Assembly: GCF_963921235.1 (NCBI RefSeq)
Contig: NC_086108.1
Span: 44,394,001-44,458,000, forward strand
Reading direction: 5' to 3'
DNA length: 64,000 nucleotides
From: Mobula hypostoma
Taxonomy: Eukaryota
The translations under genes were made by a program, and so were the position numbers. The notes under the pieces are model-generated. The model made no database searches. It saw nothing but the letters and a program-made list of their open reading frames with translations, and had not been told where the DNA came from. Shown here piece by piece: positions 18,584 through 61,570 of this stretch; within the stretch, counting starts at the first letter, position 1, and each line of letters starts with the position of its first letter.

Positions 18584-20046
<1,463 letters not shown>

Positions 20047-21122: not shown

Positions 21123-24100
21123 TGTAACATTTTGTACTCCAGAAACTAATCAAAAGAAAAACACAGGAGCCAGGATGGTGTCTACTTGGTTTCTTGACAT
21201 ATGCCATTCACATACTTCCTACATATAACCCATATGAATTATGTAAACAAAATGCTTCATCAAACAATATTTTTACAATCTCTGCTTAGCTATAAACTTC
21301 AACTTGATATTGAATGCATCTCAAATATGTAACATATTACTCTAGTCATCATACAGTATATCATATAACACAACTATATAGTTACCACAGCATAGCAAAT
21401 ATTAAATTGTCCCATTCAGGTCTAAGTATTTAATCTCTGTGGAGGCTTTCTTTTGTGGGATAATGTCTTTCCTGTCGAGGGGTGTCACTGTGCTTGGTAG
21501 GTGAGAGTTGTGGCTGTGGAACAATCTCGGGTTCTGATGCCTCCTCCATGGTGGTTGTTAGGGTTGACTCTGGGACTGCAGAAAGTGGTTCTGATGGCTG
21601 TCAACACCTTTCTTCTCTAAATTTGTCTCTGCTCTCCTCAACTGATCGATTCTGTTCTTGATCTTTCCGAGGACCCACTTTTGATCATCTTTGTAGTTCC
21701 ACACCAGAACTGCTTGTAGAGGAGTGAAACATCGAACCTCCTTGTTTGAGGAGCCCTTGATTTGACTCAGTTTGTTTATCCTGCGTACTTCTTCTGAGCA
21801 ACATACATCAAAGTTGCTGGTGAACGCAGCAGGCCAAGCAGCATCTATAGGAAGAGGTGCAGTCGACGTTTCAGGCCGAGACCCTTCGTCCGAAACGTCG
21901 ACTGCAACTCTTCCTATAGATGCTGCTTGGCCTGCTGCGTTCACCAGCAACTTTGATGTATGTTGCTTGAATTTCCAGCATCTGCAGAATTCCTGTTGTT
22001 TACTTCTTCTGAGATTGGGTTTGAGGAGCTACAGGTGTGAGTGCAAGGAATGACCCAGGAACAGCATTAACAGTGAATTGTTGGTTCTGGAGTGTGATGC
22101 ATTGCGTTATGGAAGGAAGAAATTGGCATGCTTCTGATTAAGTGTCAGTGGAGTGTGATCTCCTGACATTGCTAGCAGTGTGTTCTTCAGACTCTGGACA
22201 AGCCTTTCCACCAAGACATTTGTAGCTGGGTGGTATAGTGCAGATGTAACTACTTATTCCATTCATTTTCAGGATTGATTGAAACCGTTCTGCAACAAAT
22301 TGTGGTCCATTGTCACTGACTAAATGTTCCTGAACACCAGTCCTTGTGAAGGTGCTTCCCAACACATCAGTAGTGTGTAAGGCTGTAGTGGAGGCTATTG
22401 GGAACACTTCTGGCCACATTGTAGCTGCATGGACCTCTACCAAGAATTTAGTGCCCTTGAATGGTCTGGCAAAATCCACCTGAATCCTCTGCCAGGGCAA
22501 TGCAGGCCTTTACCAGGGATGGAGAGGTTCTGTGATTTTTTTGGGGGGGGGGGTGCGTGTTGCCATCTCGAACAATGCATGGTAAGCTGCTCGATCTGCT
22601 GGTCTAACCCAGGTCACCAGACAAAGCTTTGAGCCAGTGCTTTCATTTTGATCCCGCCTGGATGACTGGCATGTAGCTCCTCCCAACACTTTGCCTCTCA
22701 GCTGGGATGGTACAGCAACTTTCAGTCCTCACATAAGGCAACCCGTGTCAAGGACAAGTTTATCCCAGCATTAGTAACAATGGGGGAGCTGGAATTTCTG
22801 CTGCACGTTCAATCCATTTTCAGTTGCCATAGGTCTGGGACACTGTGGGGACTTTTCTGATTTCCCTTTGGATCATTTCTGTCGCAAAAGGGACAGTTTT
22901 GATTTGCAAGAGGAGTGTCCCCTTTTGTAATTTTTGTAAAATTTTCAGGATATAAATGGGGCAGTTCATCAGCATTTCCATGATTAGTTGTCCTTTTGAA
23001 TTTGACCTTTACTATTTGGTTTTACAATTACTCATTTTAAATGTAACAATGTATCTCCTACTACTTGTATTTTTGCTCTGTTTTCATTCTATGAAATTAA
23101 TAAAAAGATTGAAAAAGAAAGAAAGAATTTGACCTTATAATTTTGTCCTCCAAGAAACAGAGCCCACTTCTGCATTAGTGCTGCTGCTGTTAGTGAAACA
23201 CTCTTATGGATTGACAATGGACACCTGTGGTTGATGTTCAGTGATGAGGGTAAACTCTCTTCCAAACATGTATTGGCTGAAAGTTTTAACAGCCCAAACC
23301 AGACTCAAAGCCTCTGTCAATCTGTGTGTAATTTTTCTTTGCAACAGTAAGGGAATGTGATACAAAGGCTATGCACTTCCATCACTCATAACGTGTCATG
23401 ACTTCATCTATAAGGCGAGTTGTCACATGCAGGTTTAAGTGGATAAAGTGGGTCATTATCTGAGTACAGCAAAGATCACCATTTCCTTTACCTTTTGGAA
23501 AGCCACCTCGCGCTGTTTTATCCATTGCCATTTCTTCCCGATCTGTAGTAATGAGTTCAAGGTGTGAAGCATAGTAGGCAGGTTTGGCAGGAACCTGTTA
23601 AAGTAGGTGACAAATACTAAAAGGTACTGTAACTGTGACATGCCCTTGGCCTTTCACCACTGCTTGAATTTTCTCAGCATACATGTGTGATCTTTGTGCA
23701 TCAATGGTGTGACCACAGTAAGTGATGCTTGGTTTAAAGAATTCACACTTGTCACGTCGTGCTCTGAGACCATATCTCATCTTTTTAACACTGTCTTGAG
23801 ATTTTGGAGATGTTCCTTGTCACACTGTCTAGTAATAATGATGTCACCCAGGTAACACTGATTGCTAGGCAGCCTTGCAGCAGCTGGTCCATAGCTTTCT
23901 GTCAGAGTGCAGGTGCAGATACTACTCTAAAGGTAAGCCGACTATAGTGATACAACCCTTTGTGAGTGTTTATGGTGAGAAACACCTTGGAGTCTTCTTC
24001 CAACTCCATCTATAGGTAGTCCTCAACTAAGTCTGCTTTGCAAACCTTTCTGGAGGGAAGCACTTCAGCAAAGATATCCTTTATCCTGGGCAGAGGGTAT

Positions 24101-35262: not shown

Positions 35263-38200
35263 AGGGATAATAGGAGCACAGGGATAATAGGAGAAGAGGC
35301 AAGAGAGGAGGTTAGTTCACAAATAGAGAAAGCTAGTAGACAGTGTGTGAGGGAGGATAGGCAGATGACAGAGAAGGGGAGTGCTCAGACTGAAGATGTA
35401 GGGGAGAAGGAAGAAAAAGATAATAAAGTTGTTAGCACCATCAGGGATAAACAGAGTAAAAGGTGGAGAGTTTCTCAAATGTTATCTATTTTAATGCTAA
35501 GAGCATTGTAAGAAAGGTGGATGAGCTTAGAGCATGGATTGATAGCTGGAAATATGATGATGTAGCTATTAGTGAAACATGGTTGCAGGATGGGTGTGAT
35601 TGGGAACTAAATATTCCTGGATTTCGTTGCTTCTGGTGTGATAGAATCAGAGGGGCAAGAGGAGGAGGTGTTGCATTGCTTGTCAGAGAAAATATTACAG
35701 CAGTGCTTCGGCAGGATAGATGAGAGGGCTCATCTAGGGAGGCTGTTTGGGTGGAATTGAGGAATGGGAAAGGTGTAGTGACGCTTATAGGAGTGTATTA
35801 TAGACCACCTAATGGGGAGCGAGAATTGGAGGAGCAAATTTGTAAGGAGGTAGATATTTGTGGTAAGCACAAGGTTGTGATTGTGGGAGATTTTAATTTT
35901 CCGCACATAGACTGGGAAGCCCATTCTGTAAAAGGGCTGGATGGTTTGGAGTTTTTAAAATGTGTGCAGGATAGTTTTTTCCAGCAATACATAGAGGTAC
36001 CAACAAGAGAAGGGGCAGTGTTGGATCTCCTGTTAGGGAATGACATAGGCCAGGTGACAGAGGTATGTGTTGGGGAGCATTTCGGGTCCAGTGATCACAA
36101 TGCCATTAGTTTCAATATAATTATGGAGAAGGATAGGACTGGACCCAGGGTTGAGATATTTGATTGGAGAAAGGCTAACTTTGAGGAGATGTGAAAGGAT
36201 TTAGGAGGAGTGGATTGGGACAATTTGTTTTATGGGAAGGATGTAATAGAGAAATGGAGGCTAGTTAAAGGTGAAATTTTGAGGGTACAGAATCTTTATG
36301 TTCCTGTTAGGTTGAAAGGAAAAGTTAAAAGTTTGAGAGAGCCATGGTTTTCAAGGGATATTGGAAACTTGGTTTGGAAAAAGAGAGAGATCTACAATGA
36401 ATATAGACAGCTTGGAGTAAATGAGGTGCTCGAGGAATATAAAGAATGTAAAAAGAATCTTAAGAAAGAAATTAGAAAAGCTAAAAGAAGATGTGAGGTT
36501 GCTTTGGCAAGTAAGGTGAAAATAAATCCAAAGGGTTTCTACAGTTATATTAATAGCAAAAAAAAAAGGATAAAATTGGTCCCTTAGAGAATCAGAGTGG
36601 ACAGCTATGTGTGGAGCCAAAAGAGATGGGGGAGATTTTGAACAATTTCTTTTCTTCGGTATTCACTAAGGAGAAGGATATTGAATTGTGTAAGGTAAGG
36701 GAAACAATTAGGGAAGTTATGGAAACTATGATGATTAAAGAAGAGGAAGTACTGGCTCTTTTAAGGAATATAAAAGTGGATAAGTCTCCGGGTCCTGACA
36801 GGATATTCCCAAGGACCTTGAGGGAAGTTAGTGTAGTAATTGCAGGGGCTCTGACAGAAATATTCAAATGTCATTAGAAACGGGGATGGTGTCAGAGGAT
36901 TGGTGTACTGCTCATGTTCCATTGTTTAAAAAGGGTTCTAAGAGTAAACCGAGCAATTATCGGCCTGTAAGTTTGACGTCAGCGGTGGGTAATTTAATGG
37001 AAAGTATTCTTAGAGATGGTATATATAATTATCTGGATAGACAGGGTCTGATTAGGAACAGTTAACATGGATTTGTGCGTGGAAGGTCATGTTTGACAAA
37101 TCTTATTGAATTTTTTGAAGAGGTTACCAGGAAAATTGACAAGGGTAAAGCAGTGGATGTTGTCTATATGGACTTCAATAAGGCCTTTGACAAGGTTCCA
37201 CACAGAAGATTAGTTAGGAAGGTTGAATCGTTAGGGTTTAATATTGAAGTAGTAAAATGGATTCAACAGTGGCTGGATGGGAGATGCCAGAGAGTAGTGG
37301 TGGATAACTGTTTGTCAGGTTGGAGGCCAATAACTAGTGGTGTGCCTCAGGGATCTGTACTGGGTCCAATGTTGTTTGTCATATGCATTAATGATCTGGA
37401 TGATGGGGCTGTAAATTGGATTAGTAAATATGTAGATGATACTAAGATAAGTGGAGTTGTGGATAGTGAAGCAGGTTTTCAAAGCTTGCAGAGAGATTTA
37501 GGCCAGTTAGAAGAGTGGGCTGAAAGATGGCAGATGGAGTTTAATGCTGATAAATGTGAGGTGCTACATTTTGGTAGGACTAATCAAAATAGGACATACA
37601 TGGTAAATGGTAGGGCATTGAAGAATGCAGTAGATCAGAGGGATCTAGGAAAAATGGTGCATAGTTCCCTGAAGGTGGAATCTCATGTGGTTAGGGTGGT
37701 GAAGAAAGCTTTTGGTATGCTGGCCTTTATAAATCAGAGCATTGAGTATAGGAGTTGGGATGTAATGTTAAAATTGTACAAGGTATTGGTGAGGCCAAAT
37801 TTGGAGTATTGTGTACAGTTCTGGTCACCAAATTATAGGAAAGATGTCAACAAAATAGAGAGAGTACAGAGGAGATTTACTGGAATGATACCTGGGTTTC
37901 AGCACCTGAGTTACAGAGAAAGGTTGAACAAGTTTGGTCTTTATTCTTTGGAGTGTAGAAGGTTGAGTGGGACTTGCTAGAGGTATTTAAAATTATGAGG
38001 GGGTTAGATAGAGTTGACGTGAATAGGCTTTTTCCATTGAGAGTGGGGGAGATTCAAACAAGAGGACATGAGTTGAGAGTTAAGGGGCAAAAGTTTAGGG
38101 GTAACACGAGGGGGAACTTCTTTACTCAGAGTGTGGTATCTGTGTGGAATGAGCTTCCAGTTGAAGTGGCAGAGGCAGGTTTGATTTTGTCATTTAAAAA

Positions 38201-38347
38201 AAAATTGGATAGGTATATGGACAGGAAAGGAATGGAGGGTTATGGGCTGAGTGCAGGTAGATGGGACTACGTGAGAGTAAGCGTTCGGCACGGACTAGAA
38301 GGTCCGAGATGGCCTGTTTCCGTGCTGTAATTGTTATATGGTTATAA
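35263..38347 (+). mobile_element. CR1-clade LINE, 5'-truncated, ORF2 complete but disrupted
   Basis: APE motifs (YFNAKSI, AISETWL, GVYYRPP, IVGDFN, SSDHNAI) and RT motifs (KSPGPD, NYRPVSLTS, VYMDFNKAFDKVPH, SGVPQGSVLGP, KYVDDTK), C-terminal TRGHELR; tail ctgtaattgttatatggttatat. Confidence 0.97.
35463..38330 (+). pseudogene. CR1 ORF2 (endonuclease-reverse transcriptase) pseudogene
   Basis: Seven consecutive ORF fragments (35463, 35751, 36210, 36611, 36868, 37075, 37974) separated by stops or frameshifts. Confidence 0.95.
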
Positions 38348-43537: not shown

Positions 43538-44492
43538 CTGATGCTTCTGGACACATCTTCAGTGATGTTCCTGGAATCATCGGGTGTTTTGGGTCTTTCA
43601 ACATCATACAACCTCCTCCAGGTGACCCAGCCGGGGCTGATCAGACCCCAGCTTGTGTCCAGATGGCTAGCTACTTATGACTCCATGTCTCCCCTCTTTT
43701 GAGCCACAGCCATCTTGAGGCCCTCTCTGCTGCATCGGTGGTACTGTGGATGGCTCTCCTCTTCCTCTCTCCCTGGATGCCCAAATTGCTGAAGGCTGTA
43801 ACTAAGGAATGGGCTGCAAATCCCCTACAACCAACCTCCACTGGGAGATACCTCGCTCTCCATCCAGCCTGCTGACAGTTGCTGACCAGTCCTGCGTACT
43901 TGGAGAGCTTCCTTTCAAAGGCCTCTTCCAAGCGATCTTCCCATGGGACTGTCAGCTCCAGCAGCACCACTTGCTGAGTAGACTCAGACACTAGGACAAT
44001 GTCTGGTCACAGGTTGGTGGCTGCGATATGGTTAGGGAACTTCAGATGCCTTTCAAGGTCCACCAACAGCTGCCAGTCCCTTGCAGAGGTCAGAATGCCT
44101 GCAGATGTTCTTTTGGCAGGTATTGGCTGCTCCCCAGCTCTGACAAAGGCAATGGTCTGCTTGGAGGGTCGGGACCACTTCGCCCACTCAACTCCTGCGC
44201 TGACGGCTTCAGCGATGGTCTTCAGGACCTGATCATGCCTCCACCTGTACCGTCCCTCACCAAGTGCCCTTGCACAGCCGCTGAGGATGTGCTCCAGGGT
44301 TCCTCGCTTGGAGCACAGTGGGCACGCAGATGACTCTGCCTTGCCCCATGTGTGCAGGTTTGATGGGCTTGGAAGCACATTGTACACTGCTTGGATGAGA
44401 AATTGGATGCGGTGTGGTTCGGCTTTCCAAAGATCAGCCCAGGTCACTTTCCTCTCAACCGCATTCTCCCATCTTGTCCAAGTTCCCTGTTG
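43538..44492 (-). mobile_element. HERO-like non-LTR retrotransposon (RLE type), 5'-truncated
   Basis: One reading frame with a single stop: QQGTWTRWE...CPLCSKRGTLEHILSGC (CCHC)...RYRWRHDQVL...L*PDIVL...LLELTVPWE...ERKLSKY...PVEVGCRGF...RWLWLKR, i.e. a PD-(D/E)xK restriction-like endonuclease; structured 3' UTR. Confidence 0.88.
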
Positions 44493-44539
44493 TATAAATT
44501 CAAATGATTTGATATTTGCCTCTGTAATAACCTTAGAAT

Positions 44540-44880
44540 ATTTTGCTTCAATTAGGCTACTTAAGTCCTTTTGAAGTGTAGACATGTAGCTTTGTAGGAA
44601 AATGCTGCCACCATTTTTGTGCTTGGACAGATCACAAGCAACACATGAGATAAATGGTTTGTTTTTTTCATGTTGAGTGAGCTAAATGCTGGCTTGTATA
44701 CCATCAGGACAACCTTACTCTTTGAATGTTGCCAAAAGAGAGCAGATGGAGGGTTGATGTAATGTTCCATTCTTCAGTATGGCATTGAAATGTCAACCTA
44801 GATCATATGTGCAAGACCTGAAGCAGTGTTGGAAGCTACAGCTTTCTGACTTGAGTGCTATGCCAACTGAGCCAAGGATG
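44540..44880 (-). mobile_element. Degenerate DeuSINE (SacSINE1-like)
   Basis: Minus-strand head tggctcagttggcatagcactcaagtcagaaag and Deu-like end ttcctacaaag...ctacacttcaaaagg; matches the recalled shark DeuSINE layout. Confidence 0.55.
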
Positions 44881-49431: not shown

Positions 49432-50404
49432 TCACAAACGGAGAAGATCTGCAGGTGCTGGAAATCCAAGCAACACACAAAATGCTGGAGGAACTGAGCA
49501 GGCCAGGCACATCTGTAGAAAAGAGTACAGTCAATGTTTTGGGCCAAAACCCTTCAGCAGGACTGGAGGAAAAAAAAGCTGAGGAGTAGATTTAAAAGGT
49601 GGAGGGGAGGGGAGAGAGAAACACAAGGTGATAGGTGAAACCTGAAGGGGGAGGAATGAAGTAAAGAGCTGGGAAGCTGATTGGTGAAAGAGACAGAAGA
49701 TCATGGAAGAAGGAAAGTGGGGGAGGAGCACCAGAGGGAGTCTGTTGCAAGCAGAACAAGTGCTACACCTTCCCCTACACCCCCTCCCTCGCTACTGTTC
49801 AGGGCCCTAAACAGACCTTCCAGGTGAGGCGACACTTCACCTGTGAGTCTGTTGGGGTCATATACTGTGTCCAGTGCTCCAAGAGTGGCCTCCTGTATAT
49901 CGTCAGGCCTAACGTAGATCAGGAGATTGCTTCACCGAGCACCTACACTCTGTCCACCAGAAAAAGTTGCCACCTATTATAATTTCACTTCCTATTCCCA
50001 ACCTTGTATTCTGTTTGGGTAGCTTCCAACCGGATGGCATGAATATCAACTTCTCAAACTTCAGTAATGCCCCCCCCCTTCACCATTCCCCATCCCCTTT
50101 TCCCTCTCTCACCTCATCTCCCTGCCTGCCCATTGACTCCCTCCGGTGCTCCTCCCCCATTTTCCTTCTTCCATGGCCTTCTGTCTCTTTCACCAATCAA
50201 CTTCCCAGCTCTTTACTTCACCCCTCCCCCTTCAGGTTTCACCTACCACCCTGTGTTTCTCTCTCCCCTCCCTGTCTGTTAAATCTACTCCTCAGCTTTT
50301 TTTTCTCCAGTCCTGCTGAAGGGTTTTGGCCCGAAACGTTGACTGTGCCTTTTTCCATAGACGCTGCTTGGCCTGCTGAGTTCCTCTAGCATTTTGTGTG
50401 TGTT
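49432..50404 (+). mobile_element. Penelope-like element fragment with GIY-YIG remnant and inverted terminal repeat
   Basis: About 275-bp inverted arms (49470-49742 vs 50135-50404). Internal QVRRHFTCESVGVIYCVQCSKSGLLYI (49821-49901), CFTEHLHSV and LVFCLGSFQPDGMNINFSNF. 17-bp TSD ccttcagagttctYcga at 49415-49431 and 50405-50421. Confidence 0.9.
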
Positions 50405-51196: not shown

Positions 51197-51566
51197 AAAT
51201 AATAAAATTCACTGACAATCTAGGCAAACGCGGCCTCTCTCACTGCAGCACACCTTATGTCTGCTGATCCGCGACACTGTTCACAACCAGCCTGACAGTG
51301 AAGCCCAAAAAATCTATCCCAAGCCTCCGGAATGCTCTTCTTTTATACCCTTTCCACTGATATGAAATGCTGCAGTAAGTGGATCTCTACATAATGTCAT
51401 CCCAAACCTCCAAATTTGAACCAATGATGACTTGTCAGTCCCATCCCTGTGTTCAGCTAACTTTCATGCTGTTCCCATGATTGTAATCAAAGCTTCTGCA
51501 GCCAGTATGGTTGCATTGAAACACAGTGGCGTTGAGACATCTGACAAGCATAGATTAACCCTCTAC
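51197..51566 (-). repeat. ERV 3' LTR (distal end apparently truncated)
   Basis: Colinear with 54600-54967 (cactgcagcac, ccctttccact.atatgaaatgctg.agtaagtgg, gtaatcaaagcttctgcagccag); begins TGTA on the minus strand; CCAAT at about 51421 and minus-strand TATAAAAG at about 51340-51347. Confidence 0.8.
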
Positions 51567-51599
51567 AATACATTTTGTCTGTTGCAGCCCTGCTGCATC

Positions 51600-52380
51600 C
51601 AATCTACAAGCATTAATACAACACCTGCAGATACCCCACTATACTACAAGTAAATTGCTAAACTAAGCATAAAAGCAAATGGCTATAGTAACACCCAGTG
51701 CACTACAGTAGCCCACCAACCTCCTGGCACACCAAAGGGCCACCAGCTCCTTCCTGGAGTGTAATAGTTATGGAACTGATGCTGCATCTTCCTTATCTAC
51801 AGATCATTGGATATGGTCAGCCAAATCTGTATATACTTTGACTCAAGGATGTATGTTGTACAACACTTCTGGCCCATTATAGCGTGGGTACCTCCTTCCT
51901 TTGCCAGGATTATAATCTAATGCCATTCTGTTCTGTCTGAGGCCATCAAGATGACCTCCCTGGATAACTGGGCAGGACAATACGGAGTGGGGGGCGGTGT
52001 GGTGAGTTGGAAGCTATCATCCAGAACTGATCAGCCTCCATGATGTCCCTTTTCTTGGAGATAGGGTTGTTGGCCAGGTCAATGTGATACACATATGGCA
52101 TGACATACGCCAGGTAGCAGCAGCCCAACCAGCCCATGGGGAGCCAAGGGTAGGCCTGGGAGCCGCAGACTCAGTATGTGCCATTCAACAAGGGGGGAAA
52201 GAAAGCAGTATATTCCCTTTGTCATAGTGCCACACTGCTCTATACCATTATGGTGCATAGAGGTACTCTGGCCGTTCCCCATTGGAACCTGCCCATCATA
52301 ACAGCAATGGCAATTATTCCCAGATCGTGGTGGGTGGTGCTTTCAGAACAGGGAATGGTGTGTCTGAACACTCAACAACT
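51600..52380 (-). pseudogene. env: Retroviral env remnant (SU C-terminus, cleavage site, TM)
   Basis: GWLGCCYLAYVMP, SKKR/DI cleavage-like site (about 52048-52059), ISD QNRMALDY-ILAKEGG (about 51890-51935), T(H)AIMGQKCCT as a degenerate CX6CC, then WWPFG..GGWWATVVHWVLL hydrophobic anchor. Confidence 0.85.
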
Positions 52381-52419
52381 AAAAGGGAGTGGTAGTGTGC
52401 TTCCCTACATTACAGAAGT

Positions 52420-53080
52420 TGCCACGATATTGCTGCGCCACCCACCGCGTATTGCCTGGCCCCTGCACCACAATCTCTCCCCCTCTCCAGCAGCACCGTT
52501 GATTATTGTATCCTTACCTTCCCCCACTTCTCTTTCAATTCCACCCCTCAATTTTGGTTGGCGGGGGGGTGATGGAAGAATTCAGACACTACCAAATGTC
52601 AGGGTATCAGGAACCCTCCCTGACCTGCGGTTCTGGATTTAAAGTTGCCCACTTGCCAAATCTGACTAGCCCTTCTCCGTAACTCTCCAGATCTGTCCCC
52701 GGAGGCCCACCAGCCATACCTTTGGCCTCACCTGCTGGCGAGTTGGACTGTTCACTGCTGCTCTTTTGGCTTCACCACATGTCTGCGCCACCCCTCAGAC
52801 TTTTGCCCATTTCCTTACTCCTCCTCCTCTCAGAGATGTTCACTCTTCTTGTGCCTACGCAGCCAAAAAAAACCTCTGATCTTCCTCCTTTGTGGTCGCC
52901 GTGGCTGTCATTTTCTGAGAATCTCTATCAACAGCAGCGTTGTGTGCTGCCTCCTCAGTGTGAGTGTCTGCATAGTAGACAGTGATCTGCCGCCTCTGGG
53001 TGTCGTCCCATATGTTTTCCCAATAGGATTGTCACCTATTTTGCATCTCCCGATTTTGCTAATGCCATTGGAGCATCCAT
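52420..53080 (-). pseudogene. pol: Retroviral pol remnants (RNase H C-terminus, integrase N- and C-termini)
   Basis: WMLQWH*QNR...YWENIW...ITVYYADTHTEEAAHNAAVDR (RNase H end), HKKSEHL*GGGVRKWAK (IN zinc finger start), GQIWR..QIWQV, GEIVVQGPGNTRWV (ERV-L-type IN tail). PR, RT and IN core not found. Confidence 0.7.
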
Positions 53081-53199
53081 AATCATGCGTTTCCCTTTCC
53101 CTAATGTATTACAGTAGGTACGTGAGGCTTCAGGTCTCCTGGCTGGGAAAGAGTTACTGAACGTATACTCTGGGAGCCCTGGCTGCAAGCCCTACAAAC

Positions 53200-54500
53200 A
53201 TGTGCCAACCTCTCCAAGAGCCCAATAGCCAAATAACCAATCCTGCTGTACTTCCTCCCACTGGCCCTAAAAGGAGCATTATTCCCTTGAGATGGAGTCA
53301 TGCCATTTATACTAGGTACTCTATGATGGTTGAGGTAAATTTTTGATTCTCTGGCGGGCCATCCCCACTCTCATAAATCCCAGTGATCAGGGCCCAATGA
53401 TGGAGAGCCTTAGTCCCCTCCTTTGCTGTGTTCCACTCTTCTCAAGTTTTAAAATCCCAGTCCAACAGGGAGGGATGCTTAACCTTTACCGTGACTGTTA
53501 CTCTGTCCCACAAAGACCTTTCTTCTTGGACTGTCACCCGTAGGGCATTGTTTGCCCCATGGTTTAATGACAATCCTCCCAGGGCACTCACTTCTCAGTT
53601 GGATAAGATCATTCCACCTCCTCCCATCCCGTCCCGTCCCAACCATGCTGTTTATGGTTCCCCTGATTTCTCTCTGTACTGATTCCCCCAGCTCCACCTT
53701 GGAGGAGTCGTCCCTAGTCATCAGTGAGATGGTCACCATTTCAGGTCTTCACTCCCAATCTTCTTATAGCTGGATGACTCATTATTCCTGGGTTGGATTA
53801 TCCTGGAGTGCTGGGAGACCCTGCAGGCTGAGGTGTGCTTGTTCTATGGATATAGTAACCCTAGTTGGTCATGCTTTCAAAGGCCCAGAGGCTCAGTGAA
53901 GAGGATGACTCTCTCAATCCTCACCATCAAACCAAATATCCCCAAACCAGGTATATGAGTCATTACCCTGTAAAATAAGAGCCTGGGCTTTCACTGGTCT
54001 GGTTGCTAATTAGCCCTACGTGCTGCTTCTTGCTGCTGGATGTTGGCCACGTGGCAGGCGATGCCAACATTCTTTTCCTGAACCAGGTCTGTGCTGACCG
54101 GGTGGCCTCCACCCATGGTTGTGCAATACTGATTCAGTGCCTTCACCTCATGTTTAGGTTTCCCAATTTCCTCCTCCTGAGAGATTGCCTTGTGCTGCCA
54201 TTTCATGATGACCACCAACAGCCAAAAGGTCCTTTTCTGGCTCTCCTCCTTGTTCGGAAACCCTAATCCCATTAGTACGGACACAAGATGGTGTCCCATC
54301 TTTAACCTTCGGGGGTTCCTGCTTGTCCGTCCAATCTGCTGGCATGTCATAGTCCGCCAGCAAATTGACCAGGTTCCCAAACCCTGCAGAGTTATTGATC
54401 CACCCCTTTACACGGTATTCTTCACACGGGGTCTCTTTCTTCTTACACGTATTTCTAAATATTTGTTTTCTATTGCACCTGCTAGATTCCTTGCTGACTA
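53200..54500 (-). pseudogene. gag: ERV-L-like gag remnant
   Basis: VKAQALILQGNDSYTWFGDIWFD (about 53926-53994) and NQYREKSGEP*TAWLGR...EVSALGGLS...RSLWDRV...KHP...WNTAKEG...GIYESGDGPPENQKFT, colinear with recalled ERV-L gag motifs (VRALIGKEWDPETWNGDVW; YRQKSGE..W.WILRVWD; GPED.P.T). Confidence 0.75.
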
Positions 54501-54599
54501 TGCCAGAATGTTTTGTTAAAACAACAGGTTCTTGGATCTGACGCAACACGACAGAAAAATACCAGGTCCAATTATCTAGAACTACAAAACTATGTATAT

Positions 54600-54967
54600 A
54601 GAACAGAACAGAGCAAGCATTAAAATACTTACCTAGTCACACTCAGGCCTCTTGCACTGCAGCACCCTCCCATTCAGCCGATCCGCAGCACTGTCCGCTA
54701 CCAGCCAGACAGCGAAGCCCCCTAAATAAACTATCCCAATCCCTCTGCACACTCTACTTTTAAACCCTTTCCACTAATATGAAATGCTGAAGTAAGTGGT
54801 CCAGTATATCTTAACCCACTAAATTAGAACCAATCATCACTTGTCACCACTCTTGTGTTCAACTAACTTTGATGCTGTTCCCACAGTAGTAATCAAAGCT
54901 TCTGCAGCCAGCTCTAACATTCAAGGCCACGCTGTTGGTGAGACAATAGATGAGCATAAAGTATACA
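54600..54967 (-). repeat. ERV 5' LTR
   Basis: Direct repeat of 51197-51566; minus-strand GGTAAGT donor-like site at about 54627-54633; U5 end and PBS not resolved. Confidence 0.8.
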
Positions 54968-58237: not shown

Positions 58238-58270
58238 CCATTGCTTTATACTGGGAACATTATTTTACTT

Positions 58271-58342
58271 AACCATATAACCATATAACAATTACAGCAC
58301 AGAAACAGGCCATCTCGGCCCTTCTAGTCCGTGCCGAATGCT
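58271..58342 (-). mobile_element. 72-bp extreme 3' end of the same CR1 family as 35263-38347
   Basis: Reverse complement nearly identical to 38279-38347, including the ttatatgg tail repeats. Confidence 0.85.
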
Positions 58343-59044
58343 TGAAGTGGAGTTCATTTAACATCATTGACTGAGCAACTGAAAGTGCTCTTGAACCGTT
58401 GAAGGTGCTCACATTAATATTACACACTTGGTCATGAATATCCTGGTTTTAGTTAAGTACTGTGCTGTATCCAAATTATTCCAAGTCTAAAACCTGATCC
58501 CTGGATTCTCTAGTTGGAATGGGTTTGATGGTTGGAAGGCAGGGATGTGACTCTTGCCTGCTGTTTAACAGCCCAGGTATGTTAACTTGGTTCTGTGCTC
58601 TGGAATTGGTTGTAGGTAGGGGCTGTTCACTTGCACAAAGACTGTGATTCCAGGGTCTGATGAGGACCAAACCTATATGTGGGAACAAATTTATTCTTGT
58701 ATTTTGTTTTTGTATTAAAAAGTTGCAGATGTTATTTAGATTTTTTTTGGTAACGTTTTTCCTGTCATGTTGTTCTGAAAGTATTTGCCAATGTTGAAAT
58801 AGTGGACACGTATTTCACTGTAATATATTTAGATTAAGCCAATTTGGCAGACTGAAAATATATTTGCACTGTGATAGTCACCCAATCATAACCCACATGT
58901 AGTCTTCCAAAACAAGAGTTCCTTAAAATGGAAATGCTGTAAAGGACGTACGAAGCCAGGCCAAGGCCCTATTTTTTTTTATTGAACCTTCTTTAACCAA
59001 CTTGCTATACTTCTCAAAAGCAAACAGTAGTTGCTGAAGCATGA

Positions 59045-59976: not shown

Positions 59977-61570
59977 CAGTGGCATGCAGAAGTTTGGGCA
60001 CCGCTGGTCAAAATTTCTGTTACTGTGAATAGTTAAGTGAGTAGAAGATGAACTGATCTCCAAAAGTCATAAAGTTAAAGATGAAACATTCTTTTCAACA
60101 TTTAAGCAAGATTAGTGTATTATTTTTGTTTTGTACAATTTTAGAGTGGAGGAAAAAAGGAAAGGAGCATCATGCAAAAGTTTGGGCACCCCCAAGAGTT
60201 TGAGCACTCAGATGACTTTTGCCAAGGTCTCAGACCTTAATTAGCTTGTTAGTCATGGTTAGGAAAGGCCAGGTGATGCAAAGCTTTATAAATACCCTGA
60301 CTTCTCAAACCTTGTCCCAGCAATCAGCAGCCTTGGGCTCCTCTAAGCAGCTGCCTAGCACTCTGAAAATTAAAATAAATGATGTCCACAAAACAGGAGA
60401 AGGCTATAAGAAGATAGCAAAGCGTTTTCAGGTAGCCGTTTCCTCAGTTCGTAATGTAATTAAGAAATGGCAGTTAACAGGAACGGTGGAGGTCAAGTTG
60501 AGGTCTGGAAGACCAAGAACACTTTCCGAGAGAACTGCTTGTAGGATTGCTAGAAAGGCAAATCGAAACCCCTGTTTGACTGCAAAAGACCTTAATGAAG
60601 ATTTAGCAGACTCTGGAGTGGTGGTGCACTGTTCTACTGTGCAGCGACACCTGCACAAATATGATCTTCATGGAAGAGTCATCAGAAGAAAACCTTTCCT
60701 GCGTCCTCACCACAAAATTCAGCGTCAGAAGTTTGCAAAGGAACATCTAAACAAGCCTGATGCATTTTGGAAACAAGTCCTATGGACCGATGAAGTTAAA
60801 ATAGAATTTATTGGCGCAATGAGTAAAGGTATGTTTGGAGAAAAAAGGGGTGCAGAATTTCATTAAAAGAACACCTCTCCAACTGTTAAACACAGGGGTG
60901 GATCGAGCATGCTTTGGGCTTGTGTTGCAGCCAGTGGCACGGGGAACATTTCACTGGTAGAGGGAAGAATGAATTCAATTAAATACCAGCAAATTCTGGA
61001 TGCAAACATCACACTGTAAAAAAAAAAGTTGAAGATGAAAAGAGGATGGCTTCTACAACAGGATGATGATCCTAAACACATCTCAAAATCCACAATGGAC
61101 TACCTCAAGAGGCGCAAGCTGAAGGTTTTGCCATGGCCCTCACAGTCCCCCGACCTAAACATCATCGAAAATCTGTGGATAGACCTCAAAAGAGTAGTGC
61201 ATGCGAAACGGCCCAAGAATCTCACAGAGTTTGAAGCCTTTTGCAAGGAAGAATGGGCAAAAATCCCCCAAACAAGAATTGAAAGACTCTTAACTGGCTA
61301 CAGAAAGCATTTACAAGCTGTGATACTTGCCAAAGGGGGTGTTACTAAGTACTGACCATGCAGGGTACCCAAACTTTTGCTTCGGGCCCTTTTCCGTTTT
61401 TGTTATTTTGAAACTAAAAGAAGGAAATAAAAAAAGTGATCTTAAAATATTAAAGAAATATGTCATCTTCAACTTTATGCCTTTTGGAAATCAGTTCATC
61501 TTTTACTCGCTTAGCTATTCACAGTAACAGAAATTTTGACCAGGGGTGCCCAAACTTTTGCATGCCACTG
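59977..61570 (+). mobile_element. Full-length Tc1-family transposon (IR/DR type), defective
   Basis: TA-CAGTGGCATGCAGAAGTTTGGGCACC ... GGTGCCCAAACTTTTGCATGCCACTG-TA, with inner DRs at about 60170-60192 and 61362-61380; 1594 bp. Confidence 0.97.
60333..61355 (+). pseudogene. Tc1 DD34E transposase pseudogene
   Basis: TTG in place of the presumed ATG, then GSSKQL...GEGYKKIAK...RSGRP...LWTDEVKIE, a frameshifted middle, and QQDDDPKH...WPSQSPDLNIIENLW...KGGVTKY*; 34 residues between the second D and E. Confidence 0.95.

Follow-up and report, generated by a model that had tools for sequence, protein, structure and literature searches.

A long-dead class III provirus with a gamma-type envelope in Mobula hypostoma, from a likely ray-specific branch

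We found that a 64,000-nucleotide stretch of the Mobula hypostoma genome (NCBI RefSeq assembly GCF_963921235.1, contig NC_086108.1, positions 44,394,001 to 44,458,000 of the forward strand; hereafter the window, with positions counted from its first letter) carries a genuine, long-dead provirus in which gag, pol and env are all disrupted. The element is read on the minus strand in the order LTR-PBS-gag-pro-pol-env-LTR (LTR, long terminal repeat; PBS, primer-binding site). With a probability of roughly 85%, we regard it as a member of an old multi-copy family of endogenous retroviruses (ERVs) that likely belongs to a ray-specific class III branch, descends from an enveloped, tRNA-Ser-primed ancestor and spread with the aid of helpers. 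An earlier reading of the letters alone (the sequence-only reading) had described a hidden element in which an ERV-L/class III-like gag-pol is joined to a gamma-type env in a probable cartilaginous fish. The genome searched for relatives comprises 3.48 Gb in 200 contigs, of which the window is a part.

Structure, decay and relatives of the provirus

The two diverged direct repeats enclosing about 3 kb that had been proposed from the letters are indeed LTRs: 54969-54621 aligns with 51569-51203 over 342 columns at 80% identity (Kimura two-parameter distance, K2P, 0.236), with a score of 324 against a best of 39 in 100 shuffles. The spacing between the repeats is about 3410, and the inner part (54508-51573) measures 2936 bp. 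The proposed repeat size of about 370 bp fits the 3' LTR (51203-51572, minus strand), found by the alignment and by a search of the window and truncated before the end of U5, but not the 5' LTR (54509-54967, minus strand; TGT...ACA; start placed to within about 6 nt), which is delimited by the alignment and by comparison with family LTRs, measures 459 bp and ends in AAAACA at 54509. The 5' LTRs of the family are about 520-570 bp long, begin with TGTATTGTA and end in ACA or ATA. The final ~110 bp of the LTR are missing from the 3' copy and were not found elsewhere in the window, and because this end is lost no target-site duplication can be read at the window copy.

Stops, frameshifts and deletions disrupt all the genes, and the longest stop-free frame on the sense strand has 160 codons. 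All eight peptide motifs quoted in the sequence-only reading lie in minus-strand frames and in the order given there, with QNRMALDY and ILAKEGG in different frames. Pfam found no match in the three whole minus-strand frames or in the 23 open reading frames of the window's element, and homology was therefore shown via relatives.

Recovery of relatives through the LTR, as had been suggested, yielded at least 40 matches in the genome (40 of 268 candidates scored), alongside at least 41 for the gag side (40 of 61) and at least 62 for env (40 of 181); the window itself excepted, these DNA matches are 63-85% identical. When a reverse transcriptase (RT) piece of one copy was used as the query, at least 147 matches were obtained (150 of 1719 candidates scored), including those of two younger sister families. 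Relatives retain parts that the window copy has lost, with Pfam RVT_1 (L063) and rve (L065) above their curated cut-offs. LTR pairs could be aligned in 10 of the 12 copies tried, at K2P 0.11-0.27, and pairwise differences among 18 copies are mostly 0.3-0.5; this high divergence and the star-like tree of the copies are what an old burst should leave behind. The flanks of the window copy matched none of the other loci examined.

Among the sister class III families, L133 and L092 have younger LTR pairs (~95% and 92% alike), and one of the two carries a different primer-site sequence. In another locus of a younger sister family (L081:3746-4316), an 81-bp RT piece that includes the YIDD codons occurs in 6-7 in-frame repeats, ~97% identical. 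The same repeat occurs in L082, L083 and L093-L095; the loci lie on the small contigs C140, C123, C162, C135 and C148, and some of them adjoin a G-rich satellite of ~86 bp.

Class III gag-pol with an ERV-S-like layout

The gag and pol remnants all lie on the minus strand. The gag remnant (53185-54400, start approximate) consists of an N-terminal part and a capsid-like part with many stops and frameshifts, and its stretch 54263-53917 is matched by the Hemitrygon stingray protein P0008 (E 4e-10). The start of the protease region (53086-53142) matches P0025 (E 0.002) and, by eye, resembles the HERV-L protease start in PMC4724089 supplementary file 3. The RNase H end with the N-terminal zinc-finger region of integrase (52654-53082) matches the Hypanus stingray protein P0011 (E 3e-18) and our own-built Pol profile (41.7 bits), and it is followed by the C-terminal integrase tail (52437-52653), located with a tail query and by comparison with a sister family, without a dUTPase. 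The matches of gag and of RNase H/integrase to these stingray proteins point to a ray host, and the cartilaginous-fish host guessed from the letters is right.

Against the class III sisters, the best E-values are 1e-10 and 2e-19 for the window gag, 1e-18 for RNase H/integrase and 5e-4 for the integrase tail, whereas the same pieces gave no match (E 0.1 or worse) to three class I proviruses and five Gypsy-like loci of the same genome. These class I controls were picked from env matches, one being murine leukaemia virus (MLV)-like by PDB (105 bits, versus 47 for foamy virus), one carrying MLVIN_C and one placed by tree; the Gypsy-like controls were labelled from low similarity and domain layout. 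The RT itself is missing from the window copy, and in the sister copies its catalytic site reads HLIDD, HYIDD or HYVDD, in agreement with the YIDD motif of class III; the TGT...ACA ends of the family LTRs are likewise a class III feature (PMC8278194). Out of 6326 candidates, the sister-family RT frame matched 54 proteins, HERV-L-type ones included; their hosts are mammals, birds, reptiles, amphibians, teleosts, the white shark and three rays. By eye the sister RTs match HERV-L/HERV-S stretches in the accessible supplement of PMC4724089.

In a tree of long Pol sequences, built on 740 of 977 columns with 56 rows of which none was dropped for coverage and 20 are less than half filled, the family, window copy included, has a support of 99, and its union with a Hypanus/Hemitrygon-type family 100. 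A ray-only clade that adds a third family and Narcine reaches 99, and class III to the exclusion of class I and Gypsy reaches 97 (Shimodaira-Hasegawa-like approximate likelihood ratio supports from quick searches, here and below). HERV-L-type rows form a separate clade (100) outside the ray branch, and the ERV-S-type clade (armadillo/galliform) is likewise separate. The RT-only tree (43 of 78 rows; nine more dropped for low cover, six as duplicates) is consistent with this, at 96 for the family and 94 for its sister. As to whether ERV-S or ERV-L is the nearer relative, the two trees disagree: the ray branch is loosely joined to ERV-S-type rows on RT alone (91) and separate from them on long Pol, with HERV-S itself not among the rows. 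The gag-pol thus likely belongs to class III, within a ray-only branch, and in this respect the sequence-only reading holds.

Some points weigh against this placement. Approximately unbiased (AU) tests fail to reject a grouping of the family with class I (p 0.258 for RT, p 0.115 for long Pol), the tree rows were anchored to class III-built profiles and are biased toward class III, the trees contain none of the named references HERV-S, XtERV-S, snakehead retrovirus (SnRV) and foamy virus, and the rows that serve as HERV-L and ERV-S anchors owe their labels to a comparison by eye with the PMC4724089 supplement. The AU results and the missing SnRV row, along with an env that falls among those of class I elements, lend something to the alternative of a class I (epsilon/gamma-like) or SnRV-like provirus, concordant in env and pol, whose decayed pol has been misplaced by long branches. 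We consider this improbable, as the window gag and pol pieces do not match the three class I loci, the sister RTs have HYIDD/YIDD-type sites and match HERV-L/HERV-S stretches, the 54 RT matches include HERV-L-type proteins, and the TGT...ACA LTR ends and Ser PBS are as described for XtERV-S. Grouping of gag or integrase with class I or Gypsy elements, which the sequence-only reading had named as contrary evidence, was seen in neither the searches nor the tree, although the AU tests did not reject class I.

A Cys-His box in Gag was found in none of 12 family copies, yet also in none of the three class I controls, and the window gag end is deleted. Protein and PDB searches with a decayed family RT piece gave no match, a sister gag piece scored at best 0.76 in the ESM Atlas and gave no lead, no named relative was confirmed in IMG/VR scans, and no class I provirus turned up when the genome was searched with Gag_p30, a search that had no positive control.

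The layout of the provirus is ERV-S-like and not that of ERV-L, because dUTPase is absent and env is present. The PBS (54487-54505, minus strand) agrees at 15 of 18 positions with the 18-nt site expected from the genome's own tRNA-Ser(AGA) genes, and at least 14 of 18 matches are found in 15 of 17 family copies versus 6 of 2000 random sites. Two dUTPase queries found no match in any family locus examined; as a control for these queries, the integrase tail, which is located after dUTPase in a seahorse relative, was detected in the family. Ser PBS, class I env and absence of dUTPase, which are features of ERV-S, all occur in the family, and the two ERV-L features, dUTPase after integrase and absence of env, are both lacking. 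Of the type proposed from the letters, "ERV-L-like" was too loose; the family is laid out like ERV-S and may belong to ERV-S proper.

An envelope clade shared with class I elements

The env remnant begins in an inverted piece (52329-52436, plus strand) that holds the pol end and the start of the env signal peptide, as recognised by comparison with family copies and with the same locus in another organism (F, below). The remainder is on the minus strand: the C-terminal remnant of the surface subunit (SU; 52060-52328), matched by our own-built env profile (52188-52012, 62 bits, E 1.5e-18); the basic SU/TM cleavage-site remnant SKKR (52048-52059), seen in the sequence and in the profile; and, in the transmembrane subunit (TM), the immunosuppressive domain (ISD) with a CX6CC motif whose first Cys is lost in the window copy (51860-51935), followed by the remaining TM with its membrane anchor (51620-51859, limits approximate; profile match 51910-51659, 25 bits). 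Family copies also show the ISD, and the full CX6CC is present in 9 of the 22 rows covering that stretch. CW[VL]C close to the SU N-terminus, lost from the window copy by deletion, is present in 6 of 19 covering rows, and Pfam TLV_coat exceeds its curated cut-off in the relative L037. ISD, CX6CC and an SU CxxC are described in the available text of PMC9967133 as marks of a gamma-type env, which, with the tree below, upholds the env type named by the sequence-only reading.

The natural TM frame of one copy matched 517 proteins at E <=0.001. Among the best 10 of the 517, eight are named, seven from rays or sharks and one from a teleost, mostly under the automatic name "PABLB Env-like", and the top match is a Pristis pectinata protein. 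In the unrooted env tree (87 rows x 170 columns), the window copy falls in the family clade (98) with the same sister family as in Pol (92), and a wider clade (95) unites sawfish, white-shark and zebra-shark envs with class I elements of the same genome. The window env scores similarly against a class I element (58.5 bits) and a class III one (57.4 bits). The simplest reading of these sequences is that env was exchanged between class I and class III within elasmobranchs, in either direction. We also observe that the class I proviruses L130, L132 and L135 of this genome, with MLV-like RT or MLVIN_C, and the class III families draw their envs from a single elasmobranch clade.

Humans and frogs already provide cases of a class III core joined to a gamma-type env, and the ray element is a further example. 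In the sections consulted of the respective papers, all class III envs found by Vargiu et al. 2016 are class I (PMC4724089), HERV-S, HERVL32/66 and XtERV-S are class III with a class I env (PMC4724089, PMC8278194), and an anuran preprint adds further elements of the XtERV-S plan (10.1101/2024.07.05.601823). HERV-S shares with the family its class III gag-pol, a class I env related to PRIMA41/PABL and the lack of dUTPase (PMC4724089, in part), and gag, env-start and ISD stretches look similar by eye; unlike ERV-S, the family has a protease start closer to HERV-L and an env from the elasmobranch clade. XtERV-S of Xenopus tropicalis, compared by its description, agrees in class III gag-pol, class I TM, tRNA-Ser PBS, TGT...ACA, YIDD and CX6CC. 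It has a PBS for tRNA-Ser(AGA/TGA) and an env of 441 aa with CWIC near the N-terminus (PMC8278194, in part), and differs in having a dUTPase after integrase, identical 705-bp LTRs and intact frames, whereas the family has no dUTPase, LTRs of about 500-570 bp and heavy decay. From the anamniote env survey, which in its accessible part reports gamma-type env ERVs in six cartilaginous fish, ERV-SA.a-Ppe likewise joins a class III Pol to a gamma-type (class I) env, a comparison by description only, and its Pol group is called SnRV-related there (bioRxiv 10.1101/2021.11.23.469661). Should Ppe stand for the sawfish Pristis pectinata, which is our guess, its host would be a ray and the species of our top env match, and the element could belong to the family described here. 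HERV-L and MuERV-L share with the family a class III RT with YIDD and a similar protease start and integrase tail, but carry dUTPase after integrase and as a rule lack env.

Furthermore, as far as the excerpts of these sources go, 2843 clade III RT loci make up the majority ERV type in six chondrichthyan genomes (PMC11089739), the class III clade Huo spans all vertebrate lineages (PMC6001957), and lineage I of CmiERV, which possesses an env, clusters with SnRV (PMC6001957, PMC11089739, PMC4422223). The combination is therefore neither as surprising nor as hidden as the sequence-only reading had supposed. The ray branch itself may be unnamed: the clade Huo and clade III papers count or place RTs and, in the portions available, describe neither this ray family nor its layout and deletions, and no account of the family was found in the literature searched, outside which lay Repbase, Dfam and most subscription papers.

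Deletions, spread and age of the family

When comparing the window copy with the scorable family copies, we found three losses specific to it. At the gag-end junction (53183-53185, minus strand), 14 of 14 scorable copies are longer by 130-345 nt, ~320 in most, and none has the deletion. At the large junction (53074-53086, minus strand), where protease, RT, tether and most of RNase H are gone, three copies are longer by 1.6-1.9 kb and a fourth, with insertions, by 4.2 kb, and none of the four has the deletion. The loss of RT noted from the letters is thus real, and RT-based screens would miss this copy as had been claimed, but not the family, since sister copies keep RT. Beside the inversion at 52436-52329, ~250-290 bp of SU including the CxxC are lost; none of 19 other copies has this inversion and loss.

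Two further deletions recur in relatives, as found by junction scoring in 65 loci. The integrase-core deletion (52653-52654, minus strand; ~340-360 nt) lies at a direct repeat of ~6-9 nt and has the identical junction in 10 of 17 scorable copies. The deletion in TM heptad repeat 1 (51935-51936, minus strand; ~103 nt) has a mere 2-nt end overlap, shifts the frame ahead of the ISD and recurs in 15 of 30 scorable copies, spread over many contigs, with its junction displaced by 0 or -1 nt. All four combinations are represented in the 11 copies that could be scored for both deletions (4, 3, 2 and 2). A nesting of the TM deletion within the integrase deletion, suggested by a first multiple alignment, was refuted by the junction scoring, and splicing was rejected as the origin of either deletion because the junctions do not fit GT-AG.

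Helper proteins acting in trans and recombination of co-packaged genomes are known retroviral biology. Because exact deletions recur in all four combinations, defective genomes, unable to fuse or integrate on their own, likely recombined and were copied with the aid of helper proteins. Two observations pull the other way. TM-deleted copies do not cluster in the star-like 18-copy DNA tree (6 changes versus a shuffled mean of 6.1), so one origin of this deletion is not demonstrated, and the copies were retrieved with the doubly deleted window copy as query, which favours deleted ones. A different account, in which both deletions arose repeatedly at hot spots, either while intact genomes were reverse-transcribed or later in the inserted DNA, and the family spread mainly by reinfection of intact virus, would accommodate the direct repeat at the integrase junction, the four combinations and the unclustered copies. 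We think it unlikely, given that the TM junction recurs across many contigs on a 2-nt overlap and neither junction fits splicing; a star-like tree, moreover, could not show clustering either way.

The copies L056:1445-2920 and L061:6733-8238 on contig C5, ~530 kb apart and in inverted orientation, share 86% identity across env and 3' LTR, versus ~70% for other pairs, although the integrase deletion appears to be present in one and not the other; gene conversion or recombination may have acted there.

From the observed element order, relatives, trees, shared deletions and orthologous insertions we infer the properties of the ancestor. It would have encoded Gag and Gag-Pro-Pol without dUTPase and entered cells through an env of covalently linked SU and TM with an N-terminal CWxC, ISD and CX6CC, probably drawn from a pool exchanged by elasmobranch class I and class III retroviruses. 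It may have entered the germ line in a burst, with much of the spread due to defective genomes and intact helpers supplying proteins in trans, as a template without integrase core and with a TM frameshift cannot integrate or fuse alone. Template switching between co-packaged RNAs could then have produced the four deletion combinations, and the window copy would derive from a doubly deleted template.

The same insertion is found in contigs of four other organisms (B, C, D and F), each spanning at least one flank, with differences from the window of ~2% (B), 4-6% (C, D) and 7-8% (F). Loss of RT is common to the window copy and organism F, and F has 414 nt where window 52326-52446 has ~120; the SU inversion therefore arose after insertion. 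In the proposed sequence of events, RT and the gag end would have been lost before the split of host and F and the SU inverted after it. The LTR pair divergence is ~3x that between host and F. Dating from the LTRs, as had been suggested, gives ~67 My if the scaling rate of the white shark is applied (1.93e-8 per generation of 11 years; PMC12358869, in part), and older values at slower rates, and no firm date; the elephant-shark ERV rate of 2.2e-10 (PMC4422223, in part) would give ~540 My and was rejected as implausible.

That five or more organisms keep the insertion at one site might suggest that the locus, an LTR or a truncated env was retained by the host for a function. This appears highly improbable beside the broken genes and short frames, and the divergence of the element between organisms (about 2-8%) resembles that of its flanks. 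The window copy most likely has no function now. Four runs presumed to be RNA give thin, patchy cover of element and flanks with no joint inside the element, and are uninformative on expression.

A broader proposal, which we put forward tentatively and at slightly less than even odds, is that an unnamed class III branch, represented by at least three families in this genome and by electric-ray and stingray members, extends across rays with a rank equal to ERV-L and ERV-S, that it swapped env with class I inside elasmobranchs at least tens of My ago, and that its oldest family spread largely as fusion- and integrase-dead, helper-carried, recombining genomes. No current view is overturned; the ray-wide branch and the helper-driven spread are the parts that merit specialist attention. 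The locus provides an orthologue-anchored cartilaginous-fish case for the rule that class III elements with an env carry one of class I type, within a genome whose class I and class III elements use one env clade, and it bears on the question whether ERV-L, now without env, once had such an envelope and lost it. Helper-driven spread of an old family would be recorded in the exact deletions that its copies share, and ray phylogeny gains a usable marker in the orthologous insertion.

Elsewhere in the window we observe Tc1/mariner transposase remnants (18982-19868 and 60216-60863), long interspersed nuclear element (LINE) endonuclease/RT remnants (35724-38327, plus strand; 44010-44681, minus strand) and a separate integrase-core remnant (22141-22509, minus strand; Pfam rve, E 3e-9) that is not tied to the provirus. 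Additionally, 49473-50401 is a long nested inverted repeat with arms 88-97% complementary, probably two opposed copies of a common repeat, and a short repeat at 58270-58360 has very high summed depth in the four presumed RNA runs.

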